In this document: in pieces, positions 1,056 to 22,844 of the stretch
Layout: the number at the start of each line of letters is the position of its first letter
Position numbering within the stretch: the stretch's first letter is position 1
Virus record (IMG/VR): IMGVR_UViG_3300017747_002922
Location: 13,918-77,917 of that record
From: a virus
Taxonomy: Duplodnaviria; Caudoviricetes
Direction: 5' to 3' (one strand)
DNA length: 64,000 bases
Program-made: the position numbers and the translations under genes
Notes under the pieces: generated by a model
Seen by the model: only the letters and a program-made list of their open reading frames with translations
What the model was told of the DNA's origin: nothing
Databases searched by the model: none

Positions 1056-2135
1056 ATGCCCGCTGTCAATCTGAACTTCGAGATCAGCGTACTGGCCGCC
1101 GCCGGTCAGCGCGCCGCCAGCACGTCCCGTGACGGCCTCCGTCGCGCCTGTTCCCTGCTCCACGCGCAGGAGATGGTCAACGGCAAGGGCAAGCCGAAGT
1201 GGGAGGGTGGGCAGTACATGACCACCGAGATCACGGTGCAGAACCACACCGGGATCACGCAGTTCGTGGACGGCTACGAACTCTACGACGCGTCCGCCTA
1301 CGAGACGCAGCAGGTCCCCCGCTACCCGCTCGCGATCTCCGGCCTGATGATGAAGATCGGCGAGGCCGAACGTCGCCTGCTCGGCGCGACCGAGGGCGCG
1401 CTCCGGCACAAGGTCGAGACGCTGACCGAGGCCACCATGGGCTTCCTCCAGCGCCAGTGGCAGTCCCGCGTGCTCACCGGCACCGGAACCGGGTTCACGA
1501 ACTTCGTCACCCTCAACGGCATCGACTCGACCGCGGGCGTGTTCGAGCAGGACGCCGTCGGGTCGCAGTCCAACGTCATCGGCGGCGTGTCCAAGGCCAC
1601 GTACTCCGGCGTCATCGGCTGGCAGAACCAGGTTGCCAATCTGAACAATGCGTTCGGGACGAACCAGATCGGGCTGTTCGGCCTGATCGCGAACACCGAG
1701 GTCCACAAGCCGCTGAACAAGAAGAAGAAGGTGTGGCTGATGACCGTCAACGGCGTCACCTTCCTCAAGCGCGTCACCCAGGGCGTGCAGCGGTTCGTCT
1801 CGACCGACCCGAAGGACACCGACTTCGGCGTGCCCATCGAGTACTACGACGGCGTGAAGATCTACCAGGAGTCGTTCCTGCCGACCTCCGGCGTGAACAC
1901 GACCACCTACCCGATCACCGCCATGCTCCTCGACCTCGAAGACATCTTCTTCGCGTGGGGCGGCGAGATGTCCGACGTCGGCGGCAAACTCCCGTCCGGG
2001 TACTTCGGCATGGGCGACTGGCGCCTCATCGGCGGCCTCCAGAGCGTGCTCGGGTGCCCGATGTCGGTGGTCGGTCAGACCATCGTCGCGGACATGGGCT
2101 CGTCCGGCATCGCGTACGCTGGCGAAATCTTCTGA
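1056..2135 (+). CDS. Major capsid protein (HK97-fold, putative)
   Basis: 359 aa with a strong GGAG RBS, after the scaffold. Segments EGGQY, ISG and LTGTGTG..LNGI resemble phage coat proteins. Confidence 0.8.
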   Translation: MPAVNLNFEISVLAAAGQRAASTSRDGLRRACSLLHAQEMVNGKGKPKWEGGQYMTTEITVQNHTGITQFVDGYELYDASAYETQQVPRYPLAISGLMMKIGEAERRLLGATEGALRHKVETLTEATMGFLQRQWQSRVLTGTGTGFTNFVTLNGIDSTAGVFEQDAVGSQSNVIGGVSKATYSGVIGWQNQVANLNNAFGTNQIGLFGLIANTEVHKPLNKKKKVWLMTVNGVTFLKRVTQGVQRFVSTDPKDTDFGVPIEYYDGVKIYQESFLPTSGVNTTTYPITAMLLDLEDIFFAWGGEMSDVGGKLPSGYFGMGDWRLIGGLQSVLGCPMSVVGQTIVADMGSSGIAYAGEIF

Positions 2136-2150
2136 TCCTACGGAGTCTCC

Positions 2151-2606
2151 ATGAACGCAGTCAATCTCTCTGGTTTCGCTCTCGACGGAACCAACGTCGC
2201 GTCCGACGCGGCGCAGGTCACGACCTACTGGTGTACGGAGGCGGTCACCCTCGGTGACTGGATCTCCTTCTACGACTCGGACACCACGAATCCCGCCGGG
2301 ATGAAGGGCTACTCCGTGCGCAAGGCGATCAACTCCAACGCGGACGCGCTCTACGGCACGTTCGGCGTCGCCACGCAGACCACGACCGCCGCGGGTCCGC
2401 TCGGGGTCCAGGTCAAGGGCTACTGCGCCGTCGCCAACGTCACCACGGCCGCGGACGGGCAGTTGTCCATCGGTGGCACCGGTGGGCGCGCGATCGACTA
2501 CGCCGGCACCAACCCCGAGCTTCGGGTCATCGGGGTCACGCAGGCCGCCGCATCGGGCAACCTCGCCGCGGTGTTCATCTTCGAGCACCCGCGCCTGTCG
2601 GCCTGA
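2151..2606 (+). CDS. Capsid decoration/cement protein
   Basis: 151 aa, beta-rich and Gly/Ala/Thr-rich (FGVATQ..GVQVKGY..IGV), follows the capsid gene with a GGAG RBS. Confidence 0.6.
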   Translation: MNAVNLSGFALDGTNVASDAAQVTTYWCTEAVTLGDWISFYDSDTTNPAGMKGYSVRKAINSNADALYGTFGVATQTTTAAGPLGVQVKGYCAVANVTTAADGQLSIGGTGGRAIDYAGTNPELRVIGVTQAAASGNLAAVFIFEHPRLSA

Positions 2607-2673
2607 TCGGTACGCGTCAGGGGGTGGCCTCTGTTGCGGTTTCCTCCCTTCCGGCCACCACCTGACGTTTCCT

Positions 2674-2707
2674 GTAGGGGGTGCTTCGGCGCCCCCTACG
2701 CTGTTTT
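2674..2707 (+). terminator. Intrinsic terminator after the capsid/decoration genes
   Basis: Hairpin GTAGGGGGTGC-TTCG-GCGCCCCCTAC followed by GCTGTTTT. A second stem (2615-2667) lies upstream. Confidence 0.75.
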
Positions 2708-2716
2708 GGAGTCCCC

Positions 2717-4054
2717 ATGCCGTACGACGTCCGCCAGTACCGCACCCGGTTGGGCCAGATGCTCCAACACTCGCCGCCGACGATCGACGAACGCGAGTTC
2801 CGGGTCAACGCGTTGAACGCCGCGTACATGGCGATCAACGACATGGCCGACCTCCTGTTCGCGGAGGTCGAAACGGACTGGAAGGTGTGGACCGAGCGCG
2901 ACGGGCAGAACCTCGGGATCACGGTGGCCGTGACGAGCGGGTCGTACGCGTTCACGTTCAGCGGGTCGCTCGGCGCGTCGTTCACGTCGGACGCGGGCGG
3001 GCAGGACTTCGAGGACGACCAGGGCAACGTCTACACGATCAACCGGTTCACCTCAACGACCGCCGGCTACTTCGCGTCGCCCTACGCCGGGCCCACCAAC
3101 GCCGCGATGACGGTGTGGAAGATCAAGCCCTACCGCTTCTACATGCCGGTGGACTGCGCGCGCCCCCTCGCGTTCCTCAACCGCGACGTGAAGCAGCAGT
3201 GGGCGGGGTGGATCCCAATCATCGACCGGCGCACGGAGGAACGCAACTTCTCGCCGTGGTCGACCTACAGCAGCAACGTCGTGTACGTCGCAGACAACAC
3301 GGCCGAGTATGACCGCGCGCCCGACATCGGCATGACGCTCTCCGAGAGCACCGCCGCCGGTTCGCTCGCCGCCTCGTCCGACTACGAGGTTTGCTACACG
3401 ACGACGCAGGAGGGCCGCGAGTCGCCGCCGTCCAAGCCGGTGCGGATCACGATGTCGAGTTCGGTCGGCTTTCACGAGATCGTCGTGGCCGACTTGGAGG
3501 ACACGCGCGATGGCCTGCTCCCGACCGGCATCTACAAGAACGTGTACATCCGGCGCCTCACGTCCTCGCAGGACTTGCCGGCGGGTGACTTCTACAGCCG
3601 GTGGTTGCTCGCGTCCGCTGACGTGGCCGAGGCGACGACCACGGTGACGATCTCGTCCTTCCCGCGGTCCAGCAACAAGTCGCTGACGTACCAGAACGGC
3701 CGCAAGTTCATGCGCACGATCTGGCGCCCCGGTCAGGACATGACGTTGCGCCTCCGCTACCTCGTGCGCCCCGACCCGCTCGTGGCCGACTCGGACGTGC
3801 CGCGCAACTGGCCCCCGGCGTACCAGGATCTCGTTGTCCTCGGCGCCGCGATCGACATCGGCACGTCGCAAGGTCAGTCGACCGCGAAGATCGCCGAGTG
3901 GCGAAACCGGTACAAGACGCTGCTTGACGACATGCTCGCCAACTGCACGCAGGTCGCGAACGCACCATCGCAACGTCAGATGCGCACGGACGGCAGCGGC
4001 GCGGCGGGCGTCCTCTACACCAACGGCCCGGTCTACGGGAACTACGGGACCTGA
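2717..4054 (+). CDS. Head-tail adaptor (tail tubular A-like) with inserted Ig/FN3-like module
   Basis: GGAG RBS before ATG 2717. C-terminal LRYLVRPDPL..D.P..WP..YQDLVVLGAA is typical of adaptors. Confidence 0.65.
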   Translation: MPYDVRQYRTRLGQMLQHSPPTIDEREFRVNALNAAYMAINDMADLLFAEVETDWKVWTERDGQNLGITVAVTSGSYAFTFSGSLGASFTSDAGGQDFEDDQGNVYTINRFTSTTAGYFASPYAGPTNAAMTVWKIKPYRFYMPVDCARPLAFLNRDVKQQWAGWIPIIDRRTEERNFSPWSTYSSNVVYVADNTAEYDRAPDIGMTLSESTAAGSLAASSDYEVCYTTTQEGRESPPSKPVRITMSSSVGFHEIVVADLEDTRDGLLPTGIYKNVYIRRLTSSQDLPAGDFYSRWLLASADVAEATTTVTISSFPRSSNKSLTYQNGRKFMRTIWRPGQDMTLRLRYLVRPDPLVADSDVPRNWPPAYQDLVVLGAAIDIGTSQGQSTAKIAEWRNRYKTLLDDMLANCTQVANAPSQRQMRTDGSGAAGVLYTNGPVYGNYGT

Positions 4055-12676: not shown

Positions 12677-15600
12677 GTGGGCAAGTACCTCGACGCTGTT
12701 CGGGCCAGTCGCGAGGCCGTCAATGCTGTTCCGGTTGCCGAGGTGCCGCCCCCTGCCGAACCGGTGCGGGTGGACGATTCGGCGCCAGCCCCGTCGTACC
12801 TTGAGCGGGTTCGGGCCAGTCGCGAAAATGTCGGCGACCGCGCCCCGACCGTCCGTGTGGATGCGTTGAAGGAAGACCTGGCCCGCGGTGGTGCCTTGCT
12901 CGCGACCGCGACCCGCGCCGAACGCAAACGCGAGGGCGCATCCGACGAAGAAGCCGACGCCGCCGCGAAGGCGATCACCGACACCGCACTCGTCCTCGGC
13001 GACAACGCGGATTCGGGCCGGGTGCGTGAGGCGTTGGCGGCCCGCGTGGGCGTCGACACGCTCGACAAGGCGATGACGCGCGCGTTCGGTCAGCGGATCA
13101 TGGAGGTCCCGTTGGCGGCCCCCACGACGATCGAGCGTCAGGCCCGGTTGCGCGAGCAGGAGCGCGAGAACCGTTCCGTCGAGAAGGGGTTGGCCGCCGC
13201 ATGGAACGGCGAGGGCACCGGAGAGCGTCAGGCCGAGGAGGGGGAGATCCGCCCGTGGGTTGAGGCGGTCGATCGTCTCGGATGGAACTCGGGCGAAGAC
13301 GTGCTCACGTCGGTGTTCAGCGGCGGACTCGTCCCTGCCTACAAGTTGATCACGAACGCCCCCGAGATCGTGAAGGGGTACGCGACCGACAAGGATGTCC
13401 AGAAACTCACGGGCATGGCCGGGTCCGCGATGTCGGCTGGCGTCGCCCCCTTGCTTTCTGGCGGCGAAGACCCGTTCAGCCGGACGATCCGCGCCATGGC
13501 CGTGTCGTCCGGACTGCCCGACGTCACCGCCGAGGGCATGGACGCGTTGGGGTTTGACTCGTACTCCGTGAGCGAGTTCGCCGACAACGTCCACGCCAAG
13601 CCCGAGTTTGACGCCGCCGCGTACGACCTCGTGACCAAGGGCGACCGTGCCGCGTTCGAGGCGGTCCCGTTCAACAAGCTCCCCGAGATGGCGAAGGGCG
13701 AGCTTGTGGACGCCGAACGCGTGCGCGAGGCCATCCGCAACGGCACGCCCGGGTTCGAGGGGTTGGCCGGCATGGAAGGACTGCGCGACGACGTGCTGTC
13801 CACGCAGGCGTCGTTCCTGCCCGTCAGCGTCATCCGGTCGATCCAGCCAGACGCGGTCCCCGACGACCTCCGAATCAAGGACGTGTTCGCCAAGCGCGAG
13901 GCCGCAAAGCCGTGGCGCGGCGACGACATGGGGATGAGCGCGGCCCGGTTGATGAACAGCGCCCTGTTGCGCCCGGCCGGCGATGGCAAGACGCTGATGG
14001 TGGCCCCCGGTCGCTTTCAGGAGTTGTTGCGGTTCGCCAACGCTGTGCCCGCCGCGTTGATGAACGTGGACGCGGGCACCGACACGCCCGTCCTGAACCT
14101 CCCGCTGGCCCTCCCGCGCGCCGCCCTGTACGCCGCCGAGGCCATGGGCGTCCCGGGTGCCGAGAACGTGCGCGGCAAGGTAGAGGCGTTCAAGGTTCCC
14201 ACCACGGCCGGCGTCGAGTCCATGATCCAGTCGGGCGAGTACGACGACCTGTTGGAGTCCATGGGGTTCTTCACGTCCGACACGTACGCGAACCGCTACG
14301 ACCCCGAATCGACGTGGCTGTCCCGCACCCTGACCGAGATCGCGAACCCCGACGCCGCCGGCCAGTACCTCGGCGACACCTACGAACGATTGGGCGGCGA
14401 CCCCGAATCCACGACGGCGCGCGTGTTGGGTACCGCCGACCTTGCGGTGAACGTGCTGATGCCGGCCGAGGAACTGGCGTTGCTCCCGATCGCGAAGGCG
14501 ACGGCGGCCACGAACCGGGCCCGTCGTGCCGCAAACGCCGCCCGCGAACTCGGCTTGAACGGAAAGGCCGCGCGAAAGGCTGCAAAGGAAGCGGTGTTCG
14601 TCGGTTCGGACCCTCGGCAAGCGGTCGCCGATTCGCTCACCCGCGCGTCGATCGAGGGGATCCGCGACGGCACCCTGAACCCCGCCAAGGTCCCGCTCGC
14701 CACCAAGAAGGCGATCGAGTCCGTGCTCCGCGCCGCCGGGATGCCCGAGGATCTGCTCACCGTCGAGAAGGGCCGTCCGCACGCCAAGATTTGGGATGAC
14801 CTCGCCGACCGCCGCGCCCGCATCCTCGAAACGGCGGCGGACTTCGAGACGATCGGTGGCCCGGCCACGCAGAAGTTGCGCGCGTCGCCCGAGTATCGCG
14901 CGGTTGCAGATCAGTTGGACGTCTTCACGCGCACCCGTTCGATGACGCCCGACGAAGAGGCAGCGGTTGCGGCGGACGTGGCGGCGGGACGTGTGCCGAA
15001 GATGACGGGCAACCTGTCGATGCGTGATCGTGACCTCGTGTTGCGGTTCCTCGAAGCGGCGGCGTTTCGGGCAGCAGACGACGGGGTGGTCAAGTCCCCC
15101 GAAGAATACTTCGCCCGCCACTCGTGGGAGGTCGGCAAGGAGGGGGAGGCGTTGCCGGCGGGCACTCTGAACCAGACGACCACCGTGCGTTCTGGCGAAG
15201 AGTCCATGAAGAAGTACGGGTTGGAGCCCGGCAAGAAGTACACGAATCGGCAGGTCGCGGAAGCGTTGGAGAAGCGCCAACGCGCAAAGTACGGTTCGAT
15301 CGCCGCCGAGGATCGCAGTCCGGAGGCGAGGGCAAAGATCGCGAAGTGGATCCGCGACGAGGTGCTGTTCTCCATCAACAACCCCAAGAAGTCCGGGGTT
15401 GGGTGGTACTCAACCGAGTTCCAGAAGGCCCTTGACACCGTGGGTGAGCGGTTCCCCGAACTGCTGGACGATCAAGACGCGCGGGATCTGATGACCGTGC
15501 TGTTCGCCATCACCAGCGACGGGAAGTCGGTACCCGACAACCTCAAGCAAGCACTGGACTTGTACGAGGCCCGAAAGGTGACCGGATCGTTCACGGAGAT

Positions 15601-18600
15601 GGGCCATTCTTCGTACAGGGACGCACTATCCGACAATCTGGCAACGCTTCAAGACCTCTACGAGTCGCGCACGCCGGCAGAAGTCCGTCAGTACCTCATG
15701 GAGGAGATTACCGTTGCGGACTACAACAAGGCGATGCGGGCAGCGGGAAAGCCTGACGAGGTCATCGACACGTATCAGGGCCACGTACGCATCCCCCGTG
15801 CCGCCGCGGTGCTTGGCGCGAAGTTGGGCGCGTTCTACGCGAACCTCATGGGTGCTGAAGGGTACCTGACCATGGATCGGTGGTGGTCGCGGTCGTTCAA
15901 CCGCTACCGCGGAACGCTCCTGTCGCATGCCACCGAAACCGGGAAGGCGCGGGTCAAGGAGATGCTTGGCAACCCCGACATGTCCGACGCGGACCTGATG
16001 ACGGCAATCAAGCCGATCGTCAAGGCGTACGACAAGAGCGGGTTCAAGGACAAGACTCCCCTCAACGTGGCCGCAAACACGGTGTGGAAGAACGCGAACG
16101 AACTGGAAGATTCGCCGTTCGGTGCCCCTGACCGCACGTTCATGATCGACACCGTGAGGGAGGCACAACGCCTTCTTCGGCAGAAGGGCCACGCCATCAG
16201 TGCCGCTGACATTCAGGCCATCCTGTGGTACTACGAGAAACGCCTCTATGGAGAACTTGGTGCCCGAAACTCCCTCGACGCCGCCTACTCCGACATCGCC
16301 CGAAACGTCATCGACGCCTACAAGCGCGGAGTTCGACCCGGAACACCCGATGTGGGTGCCCCTGTCGCGCGCCAAGGCGTCGATGTCGCCGAAGGCATGG
16401 AACGCCTTGATCGCGTCGATCCCGGCGGCCCCACCCCGGACGTAGGCGCCGAGGCATTCGACGGCGACGCCGCAAACGCTCTCGCCGCCTTGGACGATCC
16501 CGACCGCCTCCTCTCCCAAGAATCCGGCGTCACCCGCGGGTCGATCGAACGCGTGTCCCCCGAACGCGCCGCCGGCACCGACTACGCCAAGGCCGAGATC
16601 GCCCGCCTTGTCGCCGAAGGGTCGTCCGAGGTCGCCGCCGCGATGAAGGTCCGCGACGCCCTCCCGCGTCGGATCGCAGACATGACCGAGCGCGACCTTG
16701 GGATCCGCGACTACTTCACCGGCGGCCCCACGAAGGCGCGTACGGCACCCCGTCGTCCCGCTCGTCCTGATCCGCTTGCAGATCCCGCCGTTGTCGCGGC
16801 ACAACGCGAACTTGACGCGGCGACTGCTGCACGTCAGGCCATTGCCGCCGAGGCGTTGGCGCGCGGCGAGAAACCGTGGTCGTTCCCGCCGTCGCCCGAG
16901 ATGCGCGCGGCGGACGATGTGGTGGAGCGTGCCTACACGCGCCACATGCTCGCGTTGGACCGAGCCAAGTCCGTGCTTCGGTCGGAAGAGGGCGGCGTCG
17001 TTCGCGGGACGATTGAGAGGGTGCCGAGCGATGCCCCCGCCCGTGTCCTGCCCTCGCAGTACGGCGTCACCCCCGAGGATCTGAACCAGACGTCGAAGGG
17101 GATCCCCTACCTCTCCATCACGGTTCAGGACGTGGACACGGACGGAATCAGCATGGAACTGATGTCCGCAGATGGCAGGGCCACGCCCATGCGCGTTCGG
17201 CCCGATGCCGTGGATGCCGAGTTTGGGGAGCGTGTCGGCACGCACATCCGCGACGCGGTGCGCCGGTTTGAGCGCACTGGCGACAACGTCGAAATCCACC
17301 CAGAAGGCGAACTGATCTCCCGGCTGTTCACCAACCCAGACGGCGCACCGGACCATGTCGACGTCCGCACGATGCTGAAAGCCGTTGTGGACATCGCCGA
17401 CGAGACGGACGACATTCTGGCCGCAGAACTCGCGCGCAACCTGCTCGACAACGCTGATTCCGACCTGTTCGCGCGCACATCCGTCGAACTCGTCCCGTAC
17501 GACGGCGAGAACGTGGGGGCGTACTACGACGGGATGGTCACTCTCACGAGGGACGTGGGGCCCCGCGTCGCGCTCCATGAGGCCGCCCACGCCGCGACCT
17601 ACCGCATCCTTCATGCCGACCCTGCGACCCTCTCGGAAGCAGGGCGCACCGCCGTTCGCCGGCTGAACGAGTTGTACGACGAGGTCAAGGCATCGGGTCG
17701 TATTCCGAAGGCCGAATACGGGTTTACCAACATCGATGAGTTCGTGGCCGAGGCATACAGTAACGACGAATTTCAGTCGTGGTTGCGATCGGTTCCGGTC
17801 GCGGGTAGCTCTCGGTCGTTGTGGGACGCGTTCGTTGAGACGATCTCGGAATGGCTTGGGTTGTCCAGTTCCGACGCGTTCGCGCACGTTATGGCGAACA
17901 CGCAGATCGTGATCCGGGAACGACCGAGCGGTGCGACTGCGACACCGTCGGCCCCGCTGTTCTCGCGCAAGGGCGACACGATCCGCGGCGCAATCTCGCC
18001 CGACGCCCGCACCGTCACCGTGGACAACCCCGAGTACGCCGCGTGGGTCGCGAGGGAGGCCGCGCTTTCGGCCGAGGTTGACGCGCTTCGGGACGCGCCC
18101 GCCGCCGTGGGTGCCGAGGTCCCAAACCCCGCCTACCCCGATGCGGTCAAGCAAGTTCAGGCCACCGACGCCGAGATCCGCGACATCAAGCAGCAGGCAT
18201 CGCGCGCGTTCGGCGTCAACCCGGCGTGGACGGCGTGGGAAGCCGAGATCCCCCGGCTGGCGAACGACCCCGAGGCGTTGGGTCGGCACATGGCCGCGCA
18301 ACCCCCGAAGTCCGCGCAGCACGTCAACAACGCCCTGATTGCGCAGAAAGAGGCGGACCTTGCGGCGTTGCGGGCGAACATCCCGCCGAAGACGCTGACG
18401 CAACCCGCGCCTGTTGACCCCGCCATCGCCGCGCGCGAGGCCGACCTTGCCGCGACCCGTGCCGCCGAACCGCCACGGACGGTCACGAAGCCCGACGACG
18501 TGTCTCGCTGGCTGCTCAAGTTGTTCCGCACGGGCGACGTCAAGACCGCGCTTCACGAGGGCACGCACCTCCTCGACCTGATGATGGGCGAGGAGTGGAC

Positions 18601-21600
18601 GCGCAAAGCGATGGAGGCCCTTGGCTACGACCCGACGGGGCCGATCACGACGGAGGTTCGGGAGCGCATCGCCGAAGCGGGAACGCGTGCGCTTCGGGGC
18701 ACGTTGCGGCCCGGAACCGTGCTCGGGAACGTCATGGAGGACTTGCGCGACACCGTGGGCGACGTGTGGCGGCGGGTCAAGCGTGAACCCGCGGTGACGA
18801 CGCCCGCGTTCCGGAAGTTGTGGGACAAGACCTTTGCGCCCGACGACGCCGAGATGATGGTGGCCGCGCACCTTGTCGACCAGCACGGCACGGGTCCGTT
18901 GGGGCGCGTGGTGACGACGAGCGGCAACGTGGCCGAGGAGATCCGCGAGGGTGCCCAACGCGCCGCGGGCCAGGCCGAGAACGCCGCCAACGTGATGCGC
19001 GCCAATCAGGAGGTGCGGCAGGCGTTGGGCCTCACCAACGACATGGACACGATCGCGGTCGGCGACCTGTTGGGGCGCGCGCTTGCCTACACCGCCACGA
19101 CGCACGCCCTTCGCGGGTGGGGGTTTGGTGACCTTGAAGGACTGACGGCGCGGACGGCGGTTCCGGCGGTACGTGCGAAGCGGATCCGCAACGAGGTAGC
19201 CGCGTACCGAAAGGCGGTCCTCGGAGGCAAAGATGCCCCGGTCCCGACGCTGGTGGACGGGCGCGAAGTGTTCATGCTCAACCGCGACCAGCAGGCCGGC
19301 GTGCGTCGGATGCTCGCGGACCTCGCCAACGAACCCGTGAGTGTCGACCTTCCCGAGCGGTTGCAGGACCCCCGCGCCGACCTTTCGCAGATCACCCGCG
19401 AAGAGTGGGCGAACATCGCGGATCGTCAGTTGGAGGTCCGGGCGGGTGCGGGTGCATGGCGCGACCGTCTCGCCGAACGGGCCGCCGTGTCCGCCGGGGT
19501 GCGCTTCGGGCAGATGGCGATGGACGCCGCCCGCAACCAGCAAAGCGCCGTGTCCGCGGAGGCCAACGCGCTTCGGGACGCGTTCGTCACCACGATCGCC
19601 GCCGACGAGTACCTGAACCCGGCGACGCGCGAAGTGCTGAAGTCGGTGGCGCGCGAGATTGGCGAGTCGGGTTCGCGCGTGAAGAACGCCGTGATCAAAG
19701 CCATGAACGGCGGCGAGAAGGCGTGGGCGGAAGCGTTCAAGGACGTGGCCGCCGCGCTTCCCCCCGAAGTGGTGCCGGTCGAAGAACTCCGCACGCTTCG
19801 GCGCGTGGAACCCCTCGCGACCGCGGACACGTTTGAGCAGGTGGCGACGGGTGCGCCCGAGATTCAACGCCTGTTCACGAACGCGCCGCTGGGCGACACC
19901 GAGCAGACCGTACAGGAGTGGGCGGGGTTGACCGTCATCGACCGCGTGAACTGGCGTGTGCGCGAGGACGGGATGGACTTCACCGCCGCGATCTCGGACG
20001 CCGGCTACACGCTGGATGAGGTCAACGACGCGATGGCCCGCGTACAGGAGGGCATCAAGCGCCGTGTCGCCGTGTTCGACAACCGCGCGAGCGAGATCAT
20101 GCACGCGTTCGCCGGAAGTGACGACGCGCAGGTGTTCGCCGGAATGGATCCCGCACGGTTGGCGGCGGCCAAGTACCGTGCGTACGAGTCGTGGTACACG
20201 GGCGATTGGGCGGACAACCTGTTGCTCAACACCGAACTTGGGCAGGCTGCACGCGGCCCCGTCTACGATCAGGGCATGGCGGTCCTCAACGTCCTGACCC
20301 GCCTCGAAGCGGCGAAGGTGCGGGCATCGCTCGCGCGCAGGCTTGCGGACGTGGGCGTGGTCGCGGATCCGACGTCGTTCCTTCGCGGCGGGGTGCGCCT
20401 TGACCGGCCCTACGTGTTCGGGTCGGCGGCGAACGACGTGGAGGCAATCACGGGCGAGGCGTACAAGCAGGACGTGATGCACTACCTCGCGGCGTTTACG
20501 GGTTGGAAGGTGACGTCCACGAACCGCCTGCCGACCATGGAGACGGAGGGGGTGTTTGTCCCGGGCACAGGGATGCGCGCGGCGTCAGGGTCGGTCAACA
20601 AGGCCGCCGCTTCCGACGCGCTCCGCATGATCCAGTCGTGGGGCATGAAGATGGGCAAGGGGTCGGAGTGGGAGACGATCACCCTTCCCGACGGCGGGCA
20701 GATCGTGATGCCGACCATGTTCCGCGAACCGATCGAGAAGGCGTTGGCGGACTCGGCGCCGCTTGGGGGTGCATTCACGAGCGGGCCGCCGAAGCTCGGC
20801 AACATCGTGCCCGGCACCGACGAACCGATCGCCGCCCACTACCGCGCCGTCAACGCCGCCCTGACCATGCTCGGGACCGCCTACCAGTATTCGTTCGGGA
20901 TGCTGAAGACCGGACTGACGACGGGCATGGGTCCGTTGATCCGGCCGGCGTTCTTCATGGGGCAGTTCATCGGCGGCATGGGGCAGTTGTACCAGGGCGT
21001 CGGGGCGATCAAGGCGTTGGAGATCATGGCCCGTCCGCTGTTGCCGACCGCCGAGGGCCGCATGACGCGCGCTGTCATCGCCAGGATGTGGAACAACGGC
21101 GCGGGGTTGACCGGGACCGGGGCGATGATGCCGGCCGAACTCGGGCGCTTCGATGTGGTCGGGCGGTGGCACTCGGATCAGTCGCTCGCGTCGGGTGCGT
21201 CGCGAGCGGGGCTCAACTCGTCCTTGGTAAAGACCGAGTTCGCGCAGAGCATCGCCGAGGATATCAAGGCGGCCGAACCGACGTTGTGGAACCGCCTCAT
21301 GGACTCGCCGAAGCTGAAGGCCGCCGCGGGTGCCGTCATCGGTGGCGCAGTCGCGGGGCTCGGGGGTGCCGTTGTCGGTGCGGGGGCGTTCGCGTCCTTG
21401 TCGCGGACGTGGCAGGACTTCTTCCGCGAGGCCGCGACCGGGATCGACAACTACTACCGGGTGTCGACCTACATCGGTGAGGTGCTCCGCGGCGTCCCCG
21501 AGGAGCAGGCGGCCGAACTCGCGCGCCGTGTCGCGTTCGACTACAACAACGTCACCGAGTTTGAGAAGAACTACCTGCGCAAGGGCGTGTTGTTCTACTC

Positions 21601-22528
21601 GTTCCAGCGCAACAATCAAAACCTGTTCTGGTGGACGCTCCTGAACCACCCGTCGCGCATCATGGTCCAACTGCGCGCGCTTCGGGGGGCGCAACAGGAG
21701 AACTTCGGCGAGGACGCGGAGTTGTTCGCGCCGACGTGGGGGGAGGGCCGGGTGCCGTTCCGGTTCCGCCCGGCGTTCGAGGCAGGGCACGCCGACCGCG
21801 CCACGCAAGGCGCCGTCACGCTGACGCCCCGGTTGTCGATCGCGGACGCCGTCGGGTTGTGGCAGTCGCTCCTTGGGGTGACGACCGAGCTTGACCCGTC
21901 CGCCGCCGGGGACCTCGCGTCGAAGCTGAACCCGTGGATCCAGTTGTCGTTCGTGATGTCGACGGGGCAGGACATTCACTGGCAGCGGTCGATCGAGGGG
22001 TTCAACACGATCCCCAACTGGTTCGTCGAGATGGACGAGAACCTGACCGGCGGGATGGTCGTCAACGACCTCTTCGGCAAGATCCCCGCGCAGTACCGCA
22101 ACCCGTCGCAGGAGGGTTACCCGGGCGCCCCGCAGTGGATCGTCAAGCCCGACGGCCCGCACTCCCGCGCGTGGTGGGTGTTCCGGCAGATGACGATGGG
22201 CGGGGCCATGCTCGACACGATCACCGCCATGCAGCGCGCGGACTTCGGCGACACGCTGATTGAGGGCGGCATCGTGCAGAAGGGCGTCGACCTGTCGCGG
22301 GAGGTCGCACGGGCAGACGGGCGCGAACCCCTGCGCAACGAGCCCGACACCGAGATGGCGCGGTCAGGGTTGACCGAAGCGGAGGAACTCGGGTCGTGGC
22401 TCGGGTTCAAACCGGTTCAGGTGCTCGACCGGGACCAGGCCCTCGCGCCCCTCATTCAGCGTCGCGAGTCCGAGCAGAACGCGAAGATGCGCACCCTCAA
22501 GAAAGAGGGCGAGCGGACCTACCACTAA
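12677..22528 (+). CDS. Giant polyvalent ejection protein (3283 aa) with zincin metallopeptidase domain(s)
   Basis: HEAAH...EFVAEAYSN (near 17576), LHEGTH (near 18554), a glycosylase-like segment (15170-16330) and a C-terminal AFDY...FYSF motif typical of large ejection proteins. Confidence 0.8.
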   Translation: MGKYLDAVRASREAVNAVPVAEVPPPAEPVRVDDSAPAPSYLERVRASRENVGDRAPTVRVDALKEDLARGGALLATATRAERKREGASDEEADAAAKAITDTALVLGDNADSGRVREALAARVGVDTLDKAMTRAFGQRIMEVPLAAPTTIERQARLREQERENRSVEKGLAAAWNGEGTGERQAEEGEIRPWVEAVDRLGWNSGEDVLTSVFSGGLVPAYKLITNAPEIVKGYATDKDVQKLTGMAGSAMSAGVAPLLSGGEDPFSRTIRAMAVSSGLPDVTAEGMDALGFDSYSVSEFADNVHAKPEFDAAAYDLVTKGDRAAFEAVPFNKLPEMAKGELVDAERVREAIRNGTPGFEGLAGMEGLRDDVLSTQASFLPVSVIRSIQPDAVPDDLRIKDVFAKREAAKPWRGDDMGMSAARLMNSALLRPAGDGKTLMVAPGRFQELLRFANAVPAALMNVDAGTDTPVLNLPLALPRAALYAAEAMGVPGAENVRGKVEAFKVPTTAGVESMIQSGEYDDLLESMGFFTSDTYANRYDPESTWLSRTLTEIANPDAAGQYLGDTYERLGGDPESTTARVLGTADLAVNVLMPAEELALLPIAKATAATNRARRAANAARELGLNGKAARKAAKEAVFVGSDPRQAVADSLTRASIEGIRDGTLNPAKVPLATKKAIESVLRAAGMPEDLLTVEKGRPHAKIWDDLADRRARILETAADFETIGGPATQKLRASPEYRAVADQLDVFTRTRSMTPDEEAAVAADVAAGRVPKMTGNLSMRDRDLVLRFLEAAAFRAADDGVVKSPEEYFARHSWEVGKEGEALPAGTLNQTTTVRSGEESMKKYGLEPGKKYTNRQVAEALEKRQRAKYGSIAAEDRSPEARAKIAKWIRDEVLFSINNPKKSGVGWYSTEFQKALDTVGERFPELLDDQDARDLMTVLFAITSDGKSVPDNLKQALDLYEARKVTGSFTEMGHSSYRDALSDNLATLQDLYESRTPAEVRQYLMEEITVADYNKAMRAAGKPDEVIDTYQGHVRIPRAAAVLGAKLGAFYANLMGAEGYLTMDRWWSRSFNRYRGTLLSHATETGKARVKEMLGNPDMSDADLMTAIKPIVKAYDKSGFKDKTPLNVAANTVWKNANELEDSPFGAPDRTFMIDTVREAQRLLRQKGHAISAADIQAILWYYEKRLYGELGARNSLDAAYSDIARNVIDAYKRGVRPGTPDVGAPVARQGVDVAEGMERLDRVDPGGPTPDVGAEAFDGDAANALAALDDPDRLLSQESGVTRGSIERVSPERAAGTDYAKAEIARLVAEGSSEVAAAMKVRDALPRRIADMTERDLGIRDYFTGGPTKARTAPRRPARPDPLADPAVVAAQRELDAATAARQAIAAEALARGEKPWSFPPSPEMRAADDVVERAYTRHMLALDRAKSVLRSEEGGVVRGTIERVPSDAPARVLPSQYGVTPEDLNQTSKGIPYLSITVQDVDTDGISMELMSADGRATPMRVRPDAVDAEFGERVGTHIRDAVRRFERTGDNVEIHPEGELISRLFTNPDGAPDHVDVRTMLKAVVDIADETDDILAAELARNLLDNADSDLFARTSVELVPYDGENVGAYYDGMVTLTRDVGPRVALHEAAHAATYRILHADPATLSEAGRTAVRRLNELYDEVKASGRIPKAEYGFTNIDEFVAEAYSNDEFQSWLRSVPVAGSSRSLWDAFVETISEWLGLSSSDAFAHVMANTQIVIRERPSGATATPSAPLFSRKGDTIRGAISPDARTVTVDNPEYAAWVAREAALSAEVDALRDAPAAVGAEVPNPAYPDAVKQVQATDAEIRDIKQQASRAFGVNPAWTAWEAEIPRLANDPEALGRHMAAQPPKSAQHVNNALIAQKEADLAALRANIPPKTLTQPAPVDPAIAAREADLAATRAAEPPRTVTKPDDVSRWLLKLFRTGDVKTALHEGTHLLDLMMGEEWTRKAMEALGYDPTGPITTEVRERIAEAGTRALRGTLRPGTVLGNVMEDLRDTVGDVWRRVKREPAVTTPAFRKLWDKTFAPDDAEMMVAAHLVDQHGTGPLGRVVTTSGNVAEEIREGAQRAAGQAENAANVMRANQEVRQALGLTNDMDTIAVGDLLGRALAYTATTHALRGWGFGDLEGLTARTAVPAVRAKRIRNEVAAYRKAVLGGKDAPVPTLVDGREVFMLNRDQQAGVRRMLADLANEPVSVDLPERLQDPRADLSQITREEWANIADRQLEVRAGAGAWRDRLAERAAVSAGVRFGQMAMDAARNQQSAVSAEANALRDAFVTTIAADEYLNPATREVLKSVAREIGESGSRVKNAVIKAMNGGEKAWAEAFKDVAAALPPEVVPVEELRTLRRVEPLATADTFEQVATGAPEIQRLFTNAPLGDTEQTVQEWAGLTVIDRVNWRVREDGMDFTAAISDAGYTLDEVNDAMARVQEGIKRRVAVFDNRASEIMHAFAGSDDAQVFAGMDPARLAAAKYRAYESWYTGDWADNLLLNTELGQAARGPVYDQGMAVLNVLTRLEAAKVRASLARRLADVGVVADPTSFLRGGVRLDRPYVFGSAANDVEAITGEAYKQDVMHYLAAFTGWKVTSTNRLPTMETEGVFVPGTGMRAASGSVNKAAASDALRMIQSWGMKMGKGSEWETITLPDGGQIVMPTMFREPIEKALADSAPLGGAFTSGPPKLGNIVPGTDEPIAAHYRAVNAALTMLGTAYQYSFGMLKTGLTTGMGPLIRPAFFMGQFIGGMGQLYQGVGAIKALEIMARPLLPTAEGRMTRAVIARMWNNGAGLTGTGAMMPAELGRFDVVGRWHSDQSLASGASRAGLNSSLVKTEFAQSIAEDIKAAEPTLWNRLMDSPKLKAAAGAVIGGAVAGLGGAVVGAGAFASLSRTWQDFFREAATGIDNYYRVSTYIGEVLRGVPEEQAAELARRVAFDYNNVTEFEKNYLRKGVLFYSFQRNNQNLFWWTLLNHPSRIMVQLRALRGAQQENFGEDAELFAPTWGEGRVPFRFRPAFEAGHADRATQGAVTLTPRLSIADAVGLWQSLLGVTTELDPSAAGDLASKLNPWIQLSFVMSTGQDIHWQRSIEGFNTIPNWFVEMDENLTGGMVVNDLFGKIPAQYRNPSQEGYPGAPQWIVKPDGPHSRAWWVFRQMTMGGAMLDTITAMQRADFGDTLIEGGIVQKGVDLSREVARADGREPLRNEPDTEMARSGLTEAEELGSWLGFKPVQVLDRDQALAPLIQRRESEQNAKMRTLKKEGERTYH

Positions 22529-22767
22529 GGCCCGCGGTCCAGTGGGTCGGGCCGGTCGCCGAAGACGATCCAGTCCGGGGCGAAGGCGTAGACGCGCGAC
22601 AAACGCACGAGCCATTCCGCCGTAAGCCGCTTGTCGGTCGTCTCCAGTTGCCCGATCCAACGCCGGCTAACCCCGAAGCGCGCGGCGACCTGCGATTGCG
22701 TCAGGCCCGACCGTTCGCGTGCTTGGCGTAGGCGGGTGGCGATCGTGACGGGTTGGTCAGGAACCAT
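22525..22767 (-). CDS. XRE-family HTH regulator
   Basis: RLRQARERSGLTQSQVAARFGVSRRWIGQLE...PDWIVFG. Confidence 0.85.
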   Translation of the reverse strand: MVPDQPVTIATRLRQARERSGLTQSQVAARFGVSRRWIGQLETTDKRLTAEWLVRLSRVYAFAPDWIVFGDRPDPLDRGP

Positions 22768-22844
22768 AGTCGGTTCCCTAACCCCAGCGGGCCCGGTCGC
22801 GCCAACGGGCCAACGGGTACAACTGCCGAGTCAGGAGATTTCAC

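Follow-up and report, generated by a model that had tools for sequence, protein, structure and literature searches.

The closest described counterparts of the protein discussed here are the phage polyvalent proteins, whose processing by zincin-like peptidases was proposed by Iyer, Burroughs, Anand, de Souza and Aravind (2017; PMC5512222); the words "linker" and "glycosylase" are absent from the text of that paper. Our protein, P0001, is the product of one giant gene in a 64,000-nucleotide (nt) stretch of DNA, hereafter the window, which covers positions 13,918 to 77,917 of the IMG/VR record IMGVR_UViG_3300017747_002922. The window is part of a complete viral genome of 77,917 bp with direct terminal repeats, and the source phage is uncultured and from freshwater. 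P0001 is a phage polyvalent protein, of the kind known since 2017. Like the proteins of Iyer et al. it is a giant phage protein in which unrelated enzymatic modules are combined with HExxH zincin-like modules; its 3283 amino acids (aa) hold a cassette with a predicted glycosylase fold, two separate HExxH modules and a helical module. Unlike them it matches no Pfam or PHROG family. The whole protein gave 0 matches against Pfam, PHROGs and PDB sequences, and in P0001 itself Pfam detects none of the domains typical of the group (ART-PolyVal, LPDs, MPTase-PolyVal); an ART-PolyVal domain is present in the orthologues P0006 and P0007.

A second group of proteins with which P0001 should be compared is the gp16-type internal virion proteins of podoviruses. 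Hardies et al. (2016; PMC4819975), who used custom chains of comparisons between hidden Markov models (HMMs) to follow similarity among IVP-D proteins, show that the IVP-D (gp16-type) homologues harbour domains that are bound for the cytoplasm, the classic example of which is N4 gp50. P0001 is like these homologues (N4 gp50 virion RNA polymerase, H66 gp60) in being the last large gene of a podovirus tail and internal-protein block, in being very large and mostly helical, and in having domains which are meaningful only inside the host cell; one part of it, cassette C, resembles part of a PP16-like internal virion protein C. It is unlike T7 gp16 and N4 gp50 in that no similarity of the frame was detected with PHROGs, nor in PDB with either the single sequence or a profile of the C-terminal module, and neither an RNA polymerase nor a transglycosylase domain was found in P0001 by Pfam, PHROG and PDB sequence searches.

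What is new at this locus is a fixed frame, a single hotspot for cassettes, the origin of a junction peptide in the leader of an HExxH module, a set of natural recombinants and a glycosylase-like cassette. The overall explanation that we put forward is that the frame is fixed, that cassettes are exchanged around a short junction motif, and that the peptide encoded by the motif has a function. We consider this explanation quite probable; the different proposals for what the function might be are considerably less certain.

Frame, cassettes and junction motif

Full-length relatives of P0001 exist. P0002-P0007 were found by a search of 5.8 billion proteins, and P0051 and P0054 were added by an exhaustive HMMER search. 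Two parts of P0001, aa ~26-831 and aa ~1756-3283, are common to all eight relatives and the middle differs in each of them. Judged from these alignments the frame of P0001 is made up of ~830 aa at the N-terminus and ~1,520 aa at the C-terminus, with a cassette array between the two. When the middles of the nine proteins were cut at the motif and the pieces clustered, at least 13 cassette types in nine arrangements were obtained. A first reading of the window, made from the letters alone (the sequence-only reading), had proposed that the gene contains an insertion hotspot; the homologues do not share one continuous architecture, and the content of G+C at third codon positions (GC3) is not flat along the gene, both as that proposal leads one to expect.

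The motif has 14-16 residues with the pattern hydrophobic-hydrophobic-Ser, two or three residues, Gly-Gly, two residues, Arg/His/Ala-Gly-Ser/Ala-Ile-Glu/Ser/Thr. The three near-copies that the sequence-only reading had pointed out in P0001 are all present (Table 1), and what follows each of them is unrelated, as it had claimed (BLASTP E > 1 beyond the 16-residue motif). A full motif heads every cassette of P0001 but the first, and the end of the N-terminal frame carries, according to the junction alignment, a degenerate half-motif (G-T-L-N/L-Q/S). Further copies are found in P0054, P0051, P0056, P0058, P0069, P0074 and P0091.

The breakpoints between similar and dissimilar sequence are concentrated at the motif. 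Among the nine family proteins 68 out of 262 internal ends of BLASTP high-scoring segment pairs (HSPs) lie at most 10 aa from a motif, where 7.7 are expected and the maximum in 1000 randomisations was 17. The remaining HSP ends cluster at the end of the N-terminal frame, where the half-motif is, and at the insertion point of an ART-PolyVal domain. The explanation that the repeats are chance or low-complexity similarity in an ordinary large structural protein of fixed architecture is refuted by these breakpoints, by the architecture, which differs in every relative, and by the count of the motif itself (a regular expression hits 17 times in the closest seven proteins of the family, where 200 shuffles lead one to expect 0.015). 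We give it practically no credence.

For cassettes A (aa 832-1218), B and C GC3 amounts to 0.804, 0.782 and 0.792, compared to 0.865 for the N-terminal and 0.892 for the C-terminal frame; the dip of the three cassettes relative to the frame is significant in each case (Fisher p 7e-5, 7e-4 and 2e-5). Cassettes A and C fall below the lowest equal-sized window of the frame, 0.84, and GC3 is back to 0.87 directly after motif 3. The sequence-only reading had seen more A/T at third positions in 15170-16330 and 17040-17950. GC3 is indeed lower in the cassettes, but the dip is modest and most of the A/T excess in these two stretches is at the first and second codon positions, and therefore reflects amino-acid composition.

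The array is also variable outside P0001. P0003 and P0005 have in common a cassette of 560-660 residues which is absent from P0001, and the domains found in the relatives include ART-PolyVal, C5 methylase, zeta toxin, RadC and LPD22/38. In P0006 and P0007 an ART-PolyVal domain is inserted about 40 residues past the HExxH. This is a second insertion point, inside the HExxH module (aa ~1990, window 18640-18700; 9949-10770 in contig L008 and 5053-5640 in contig L009). The left border of the ART-PolyVal insert is a copy of the junction motif and its right border is the usual ART tail.

Table 1. Features of the giant gene and its surroundings. Positions are those of the window unless a contig of a relative is named.
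Feature	Position	Strand	Remarks
Tail adaptor gene, same morphogenetic block	2681..4054	+	Pfam SU10_adaptor, 30.9 bits against a cut-off of 27
Giant gene P0001	12677..22528	+	3283 aa; single open frame, internal stops 0; GC3 0.68-0.98 throughout
N-terminal frame	12677..15169	+	aa 1-831; BLASTP HSPs to P0002-P0007 stop at aa 817-851
Cassette A	15170..16330	+	aa 832-1218; HhH-GPD glycosylase-like domain
Linker between cassette A and motif copy 1, rich in Gly, Pro and Asp	16331..16507	+	aa 1219-1277; AlphaFold2 pLDDT below 35; common with P0005 up to the motif
Junction motif, copy 1	16508..16555	+	aa 1278-1293; DNA similarity to P0005 stops at 16513
Cassette B	16556..16975	+	aa 1294-1433; helical, Ala/Arg/Pro-rich
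Junction motif, copy 2	16976..17023	+	aa 1434-1449; HSP to P0004 stops at aa 1450
Cassette C	17024..17956	+	aa 1450-1760; second HExxH, HEAAH at aa 1634 (17576-17590)
Junction motif, copy 3	17957..18004	+	aa 1761-1776; start of C-terminal frame, leader of HExxH module; HSPs to all relatives begin at aa 1753-1761
Recombination patch	17957..18101	+	143/145 nt identical to the P0002 gene (blastn 98.6%); rest of gene about 66-70%
Helical repeat spacer	18005..18487	+	aa 1777-1937; between motif and HExxH element; AlphaFold2 pLDDT 78-96
Conserved zincin-like module	18488..18901	+	aa 1938 to about 2075; HEGTH at aa 1960-1964 (18554-18568)
C-terminal frame	18902..22525	+	aa 2076-3283; Gly-zipper-like hydrophobic segment (aa 2882-2900) and C-terminal anchor module
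Islands 90-93% identical to L002	23750-24009, 26877-26980, 28128-28397, 28925-29317		downstream of the giant gene
Small helix-turn-helix gene (HTH_31/HTH_3) in relatives	L002 18284-18538; L008 15006-15275; L009 9389-9811	-	adjoins the stop codon of the giant gene

Exchange of cassettes between phages

The relationship of P0001 to its relatives changes from one segment to the next. In cassette A P0001 and P0005 are 81% identical and P0001 and P0002 66%; for the frames the corresponding figures are 34-36% and 54-61%. The protein trees of cassette A and of the frame are in conflict. The patch nearly identical to the P0002 gene begins at the first codon of motif 3, and all 46 same-residue codons in it are identical (46/46), against a background of 0.6. 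A second patch near-identical to P0002 is found at aa ~1930-2010, in the HExxH region, and the spacer between the two P0002-like patches is a P0003-like variant (73% aa identity) with P0002-like flanks. An attempt to date the cassettes by synonymous sites was given up: the identity of same-residue codons is 0.5-0.6, near the 0.47-0.52 expected from codon usage, except in the two patches. P0001 and P0003 have an exact run of 19 nt in common at the motif start, which is a plausible crossover site.

The same joints can be found in nature. Assembled contigs from public freshwater metagenomes (runs X1-X3) add two further left-hand cassettes, which brings to at least four the number of different ones that are joined to near-identical DNA to the right of the motif start (window 17954-17957). 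In a contig from run X3, 18/18 nt agree with the end of a P0003-type cassette, and from 17954 on the DNA is of the window type, differing at one position in 126 nt; a contig from run X2 has a tail of the ART-PolyVal type ending exactly at 17956; and contigs from runs X1 and X2 agree with the window as far as 18101, beyond which they are of the P0002 type.

Taken together, the comparisons show that related phages evidently gain, lose and reorder cassettes at the junction peptide through recombination between phages. The sequence-only reading had suggested that domains are swapped by recombination at the duplicated motif. The place was right, since the breakpoints are at the motif, but the within-gene copies are not the substrate: the copies inside P0001 are only 48-67% identical as DNA with exact runs of 6-7 nt, and the partners in the exchange are the corresponding motifs of different phages. 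The crossover falls in the short DNA that such motifs have in common (19 nt between two lineages); to one side of it the DNA stays nearly the same, and to the other side the cassettes are unrelated.

Downstream of the giant gene short islands are 90-93% DNA-identical to the P0002 phage (contig L002), the genomes being otherwise about 65-75% identical. These islands indicate that patchy recombination between the P0001 and P0002 phages is probably frequent.

The findings above would also be expected if the motif matters as DNA only, i.e., if it is a recombination hotspot and the peptide is without a role of its own. The breakpoints and the near-identical patch abut the motif, two lineages have the 19-nt exact run at its start, and runs of 16-17 nt are found between copies within P0005 and within P0007. 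This is at variance with the divergence of the copies inside P0001, in which the amino-acid pattern is nevertheless kept through synonymous changes and changes between TCN and AGC codons, and with the observation that the same peptide is the integral leader of the HExxH module in proteins having a single copy. Family-wide, several codons are in use for each of the conserved residues Ser, Gly and Ile, and for Ser these include TCN as well as AGC. It is thus shown that the motif is kept as a peptide and not as DNA, and it should therefore have a function of its own; the peptide appears to be under selection because its pattern survives the DNA divergence, including synonymous and TCN/AGC changes, far from any HExxH. 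That the DNA alone matters seems to us unlikely.

Origin and possible role of the junction peptide

Four remoter relatives, P0056, P0069, P0074 and P0091, have only the C-terminal frame in common with P0001. They carry a single motif which is followed, after 8-15 residues, by a hydrophobic strand and the HExxH helix; in P0001 the same strand and helix are found 185 residues downstream of motif 3. Because the motif runs directly into the HExxH element in these proteins, its origin is evidently the leader of the HExxH module. The sequence-only reading had spoken of an "expected continuation" of the motif that appears only near 18510-18570 in P0001, and this was correct: the continuation bearing HEGTH starts at aa 1946 (window 18512), and it is what follows the motif in the remoter relatives. 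The clade of P0001 inserted the helical repeat spacer behind the motif, and further motif copies head the upstream cassettes. The spacer is absent in the four remoter proteins and varies in length from 112 to 176 residues among the relatives. In one low-depth contig, from run X4, position 18048 is joined to 18430, an in-frame skip of 381 nt inside the spacer.

The motif HMM gave 0 matches in 25 other polyvalent proteins, from which it follows that the exact peptide is specific to the family having the P0001 frame. Other polyvalent proteins have tails of their own, e.g., the G-x-F-D-P-x-N-P-x-I-L end of ART-PolyVal.

Such an origin leads to a rather simple hypothesis, namely that the motif is the first structural strand of the zincin-like fold, and that the extra copies are functionless leftovers of serial insertions. 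The contiguity of motif and HExxH element in the remoter relatives is what this hypothesis predicts, and a comparable layout, R-G-x-F/I-x-P, a few residues, I-x-L and then HExxH, is seen in unrelated polyvalent proteins. Leftovers should decay, however, and at least 17 copies keep the pattern far from the HExxH, including copies at corresponding joints in diverged relatives. In the AlphaFold2 model the predicted local distance difference test (pLDDT) is about 30 for motif 3, which is predicted to be disordered, although the neighbouring spacer is modelled with confidence; it should be kept in mind that the alignment was shallow. When aa 1749-2130 were modelled to see whether motif 3 and the HExxH element form a split fold, the motif came out as disordered and the HExxH part was poorly modelled, an outcome which speaks neither for nor against such a fold. 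The hypothesis of a structural strand with inert copies seems to us unlikely.

A more attractive possibility is that the peptide is the site which the resident zincin-like peptidase recognizes and cuts, P0001 being a polyprotein. This proposal is made because a conserved disordered peptide at the joints of modules, also before a protease-like module, is the layout of viral polyproteins, and it agrees with the processing by zincin-like modules that Iyer et al. proposed. The likeness to the polyproteins processed by picornavirus 3C and coronavirus Mpro lies in exactly these properties and is an analogy of mechanism only; the differences are that the candidate protease is a zincin-like one from a DNA phage, and that the junctions double as points of exchange between genomes. 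If the proposal is right the polyprotein would be released as separate modules, in the capsid or after ejection, and cassettes carrying the site would stay functional wherever they were inserted. We see in it a serious candidate for the function of the peptide, although we would not quite bet on it. In the HExxH module H1960, E1961 and H1964 are invariant in seven relatives, with a conserved acidic residue at +12, and on the basis of the motif and the study of Iyer et al. (2017; PMC5512222) the module would be a metallopeptidase.

The cutting might also be done by another enzyme. A head protease of the Ser-x-Glu type trims the internal proteins that T4 and phiKZ package, and 9/17 motif copies have Ser-x-Glu immediately ahead of the Gly-Gly, so one could imagine that the copies are cutting sites of a separate head-maturation protease. 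The other copies, however, have Lys, Ile, Thr, Ala, Asp or Ser instead of the Glu, and an S78 prohead protease was not found in the complete 77.9-kb genome; S77 prohead protease also gave no match in the genome, which is uninformative as the search control was silent too. T7-like podoviruses are generally without a prohead protease. A separate head protease thus appears highly improbable. Self-cleavage of the intein-like or SEA type at Gly-Ser was considered and dropped, as Ala or Thr stands there in several copies.

A combined version of the preferred proposal, cutting by the resident peptidase, is that the peptide is both the self-cutting site of the zincin-like peptidase and an adaptor for in-frame exchange. 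P0001 would then be a polyprotein delivered by the virion in which each effector cassette has its own release site, and the cassettes would move between phages as ready-to-use units by recombination in short homologies. If true this would be the protein-coding counterpart of an integron cassette array. We offer this version tentatively, and think it possible but doubtful.

A number of points weigh against the explanation given here, or against parts of it. No position of the motif resembles a strictly invariant P1 residue. The HExxH module matches no peptidase family in Pfam, PHROGs or PDB sequences, and its AlphaFold2 model is poor (pLDDT 45-70). The first junction, at aa ~830, is only a degenerate half-motif and there is no full copy before cassette A. 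The nine proteins are related, and counts of breakpoints are accordingly counts of non-independent events. The evidence from populations comes from short assembled contigs (151 nt, depth 2-5), and not from raw reads. As to the virion, the evidence for packaging is synteny, and the C-terminal frame is without detectable sequence similarity to T7 gp16 or N4 gp50.

Modules, genome setting and significance

The fold of cassette A is predicted to be that of the HhH-GPD glycosylases. The AlphaFold2 model is good (pLDDT 81.7, predicted template modelling score 0.80), and in the comparison with known structures by VIA-align the top 23 matches all belong to the HhH-GPD superfamily (Z 9.6-6.3, 164-221 aligned residues) and are followed by unrelated fragments; the Z scores are 9.6 for Tm1821 Ogg, 9.4 for human QNG1, 9.2 for NTHL1 and 8.9 for MagIII. 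Foldseek matches are weak, with a probability of at most 0.6. A G-x-K-L-G hairpin at aa 1047-1051, the candidate catalytic Asp1067 and its neighbours are invariant in 20 sequences. Cassette A thus has the fold, and the pattern of hairpin plus Asp, in common with HhH-GPD glycosylases and the queuosine-nucleoside glycosylase QNG1 (DUF2419); it differs by about 150 extra residues and by giving no match to Pfam HhH-GPD at E <= 0.1, and we do not class it as a member of the sequence family. Among the close relatives it is found in P0002 and P0005 only. Homologues with 35-53% identity are found at varied positions in about 23 other giant polyvalent proteins, which carry ART-PolyVal, LPD22, LPD38, zeta-toxin, RadC, GNAT or methylase domains. 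One homologue is contained in a 3125-residue protein of Limnohabitans phage DC33 (PQ492659.1, 3247-12624); the 39-kb record of this phage is labelled Inoviridae, a label which looks wrong for a genome resembling those of tailed phages.

Cassette B has homologues in P0004 (930-1089) and P0007 (766-885), at other positions in the array; it and the spacer are helical fillers, cassette B being no evident effector. The sequence-only reading had taken the swapped cassettes to be effector domains, a view which cassette B apparently does not bear out. Cassette C is unique to P0001 among the close relatives. Over residues 1562-1727 it is similar to aa 258-455 of internal virion protein C from Pectobacterium phage PP16 and its kin (27% identity, E about 5e-6) and also to P0008; in ESM Atlas it falls among viral clusters, with LPD23 as a weak lead. 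A PDB profile search with the spacer and the HExxH region gave coiled-coil noise only.

The last ~350 aa of the frame are the extreme C-terminus of hundreds of proteins with lengths of 2,000-7,833 aa, and therefore represent a widespread anchor module. At E <= 1e-3 the module (aa ~2909-3263, window 21401-22465) finds 579 cluster representatives; it has no relatives among PDB sequences, and its PDB profile search again produced only coiled-coil noise. Just before the anchor module, at aa 2882-2908 (window 21320-21400), the hydropathy peak marks the sole strongly hydrophobic segment of P0001, which is Gly-zipper-like. This segment could be a membrane-insertion element of an ejection protein.

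The genes upstream of the giant gene form a block with the order TerL, a 762-aa gene, the SU10_adaptor tail adaptor, a 718-aa structural protein matching phrog_511/3287, small genes, a 728-aa gene, a 211-aa gene and the giant gene; TerL is located upstream of the adaptor in the genome. The same upstream block is present in the loci of 5/6 relatives, and for the sixth (P0007, L009) the contig is too short upstream to judge. By gene order the giant gene thus belongs to the block of internal proteins, where it lies downstream of the adaptor and closes the podovirus tail/ejection block. In T7 this position is taken by the internal (ejection) proteins gp14-16, and for that reason the giant protein probably travels inside the virion and is ejected together with the DNA, as the internal virion proteins of the T7 gp16 type are. 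A tblastn search with the C-terminal 1342 aa against phage records gave 0 matches, and a search of viral contigs for related loci, with the single protein as well as with an alignment of seven proteins, found only the phage's own genome. In several relatives the stop codon of the giant gene is directly adjoined by a small helix-turn-helix gene that is read from the other strand; the window aligns with this small gene at about 22530-22800.

Polyvalent proteins are regarded as the phage weapons that act first in the infected cell. How they are assembled during evolution, and whether they are cut into single enzymes, has been a matter of prediction since 2017. The family described here is small, has one fixed frame with a well-defined hotspot, offers exact sites at which cutting might occur and includes natural recombinants in which the crossover lies within about 20 nt, so that the questions of assembly and of cutting become testable with ordinary proteomics, with mutagenesis and with long-read metagenomics. 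To the known repertoire the locus also adds a module with a predicted glycosylase fold, which is present in dozens of giant polyvalent proteins.

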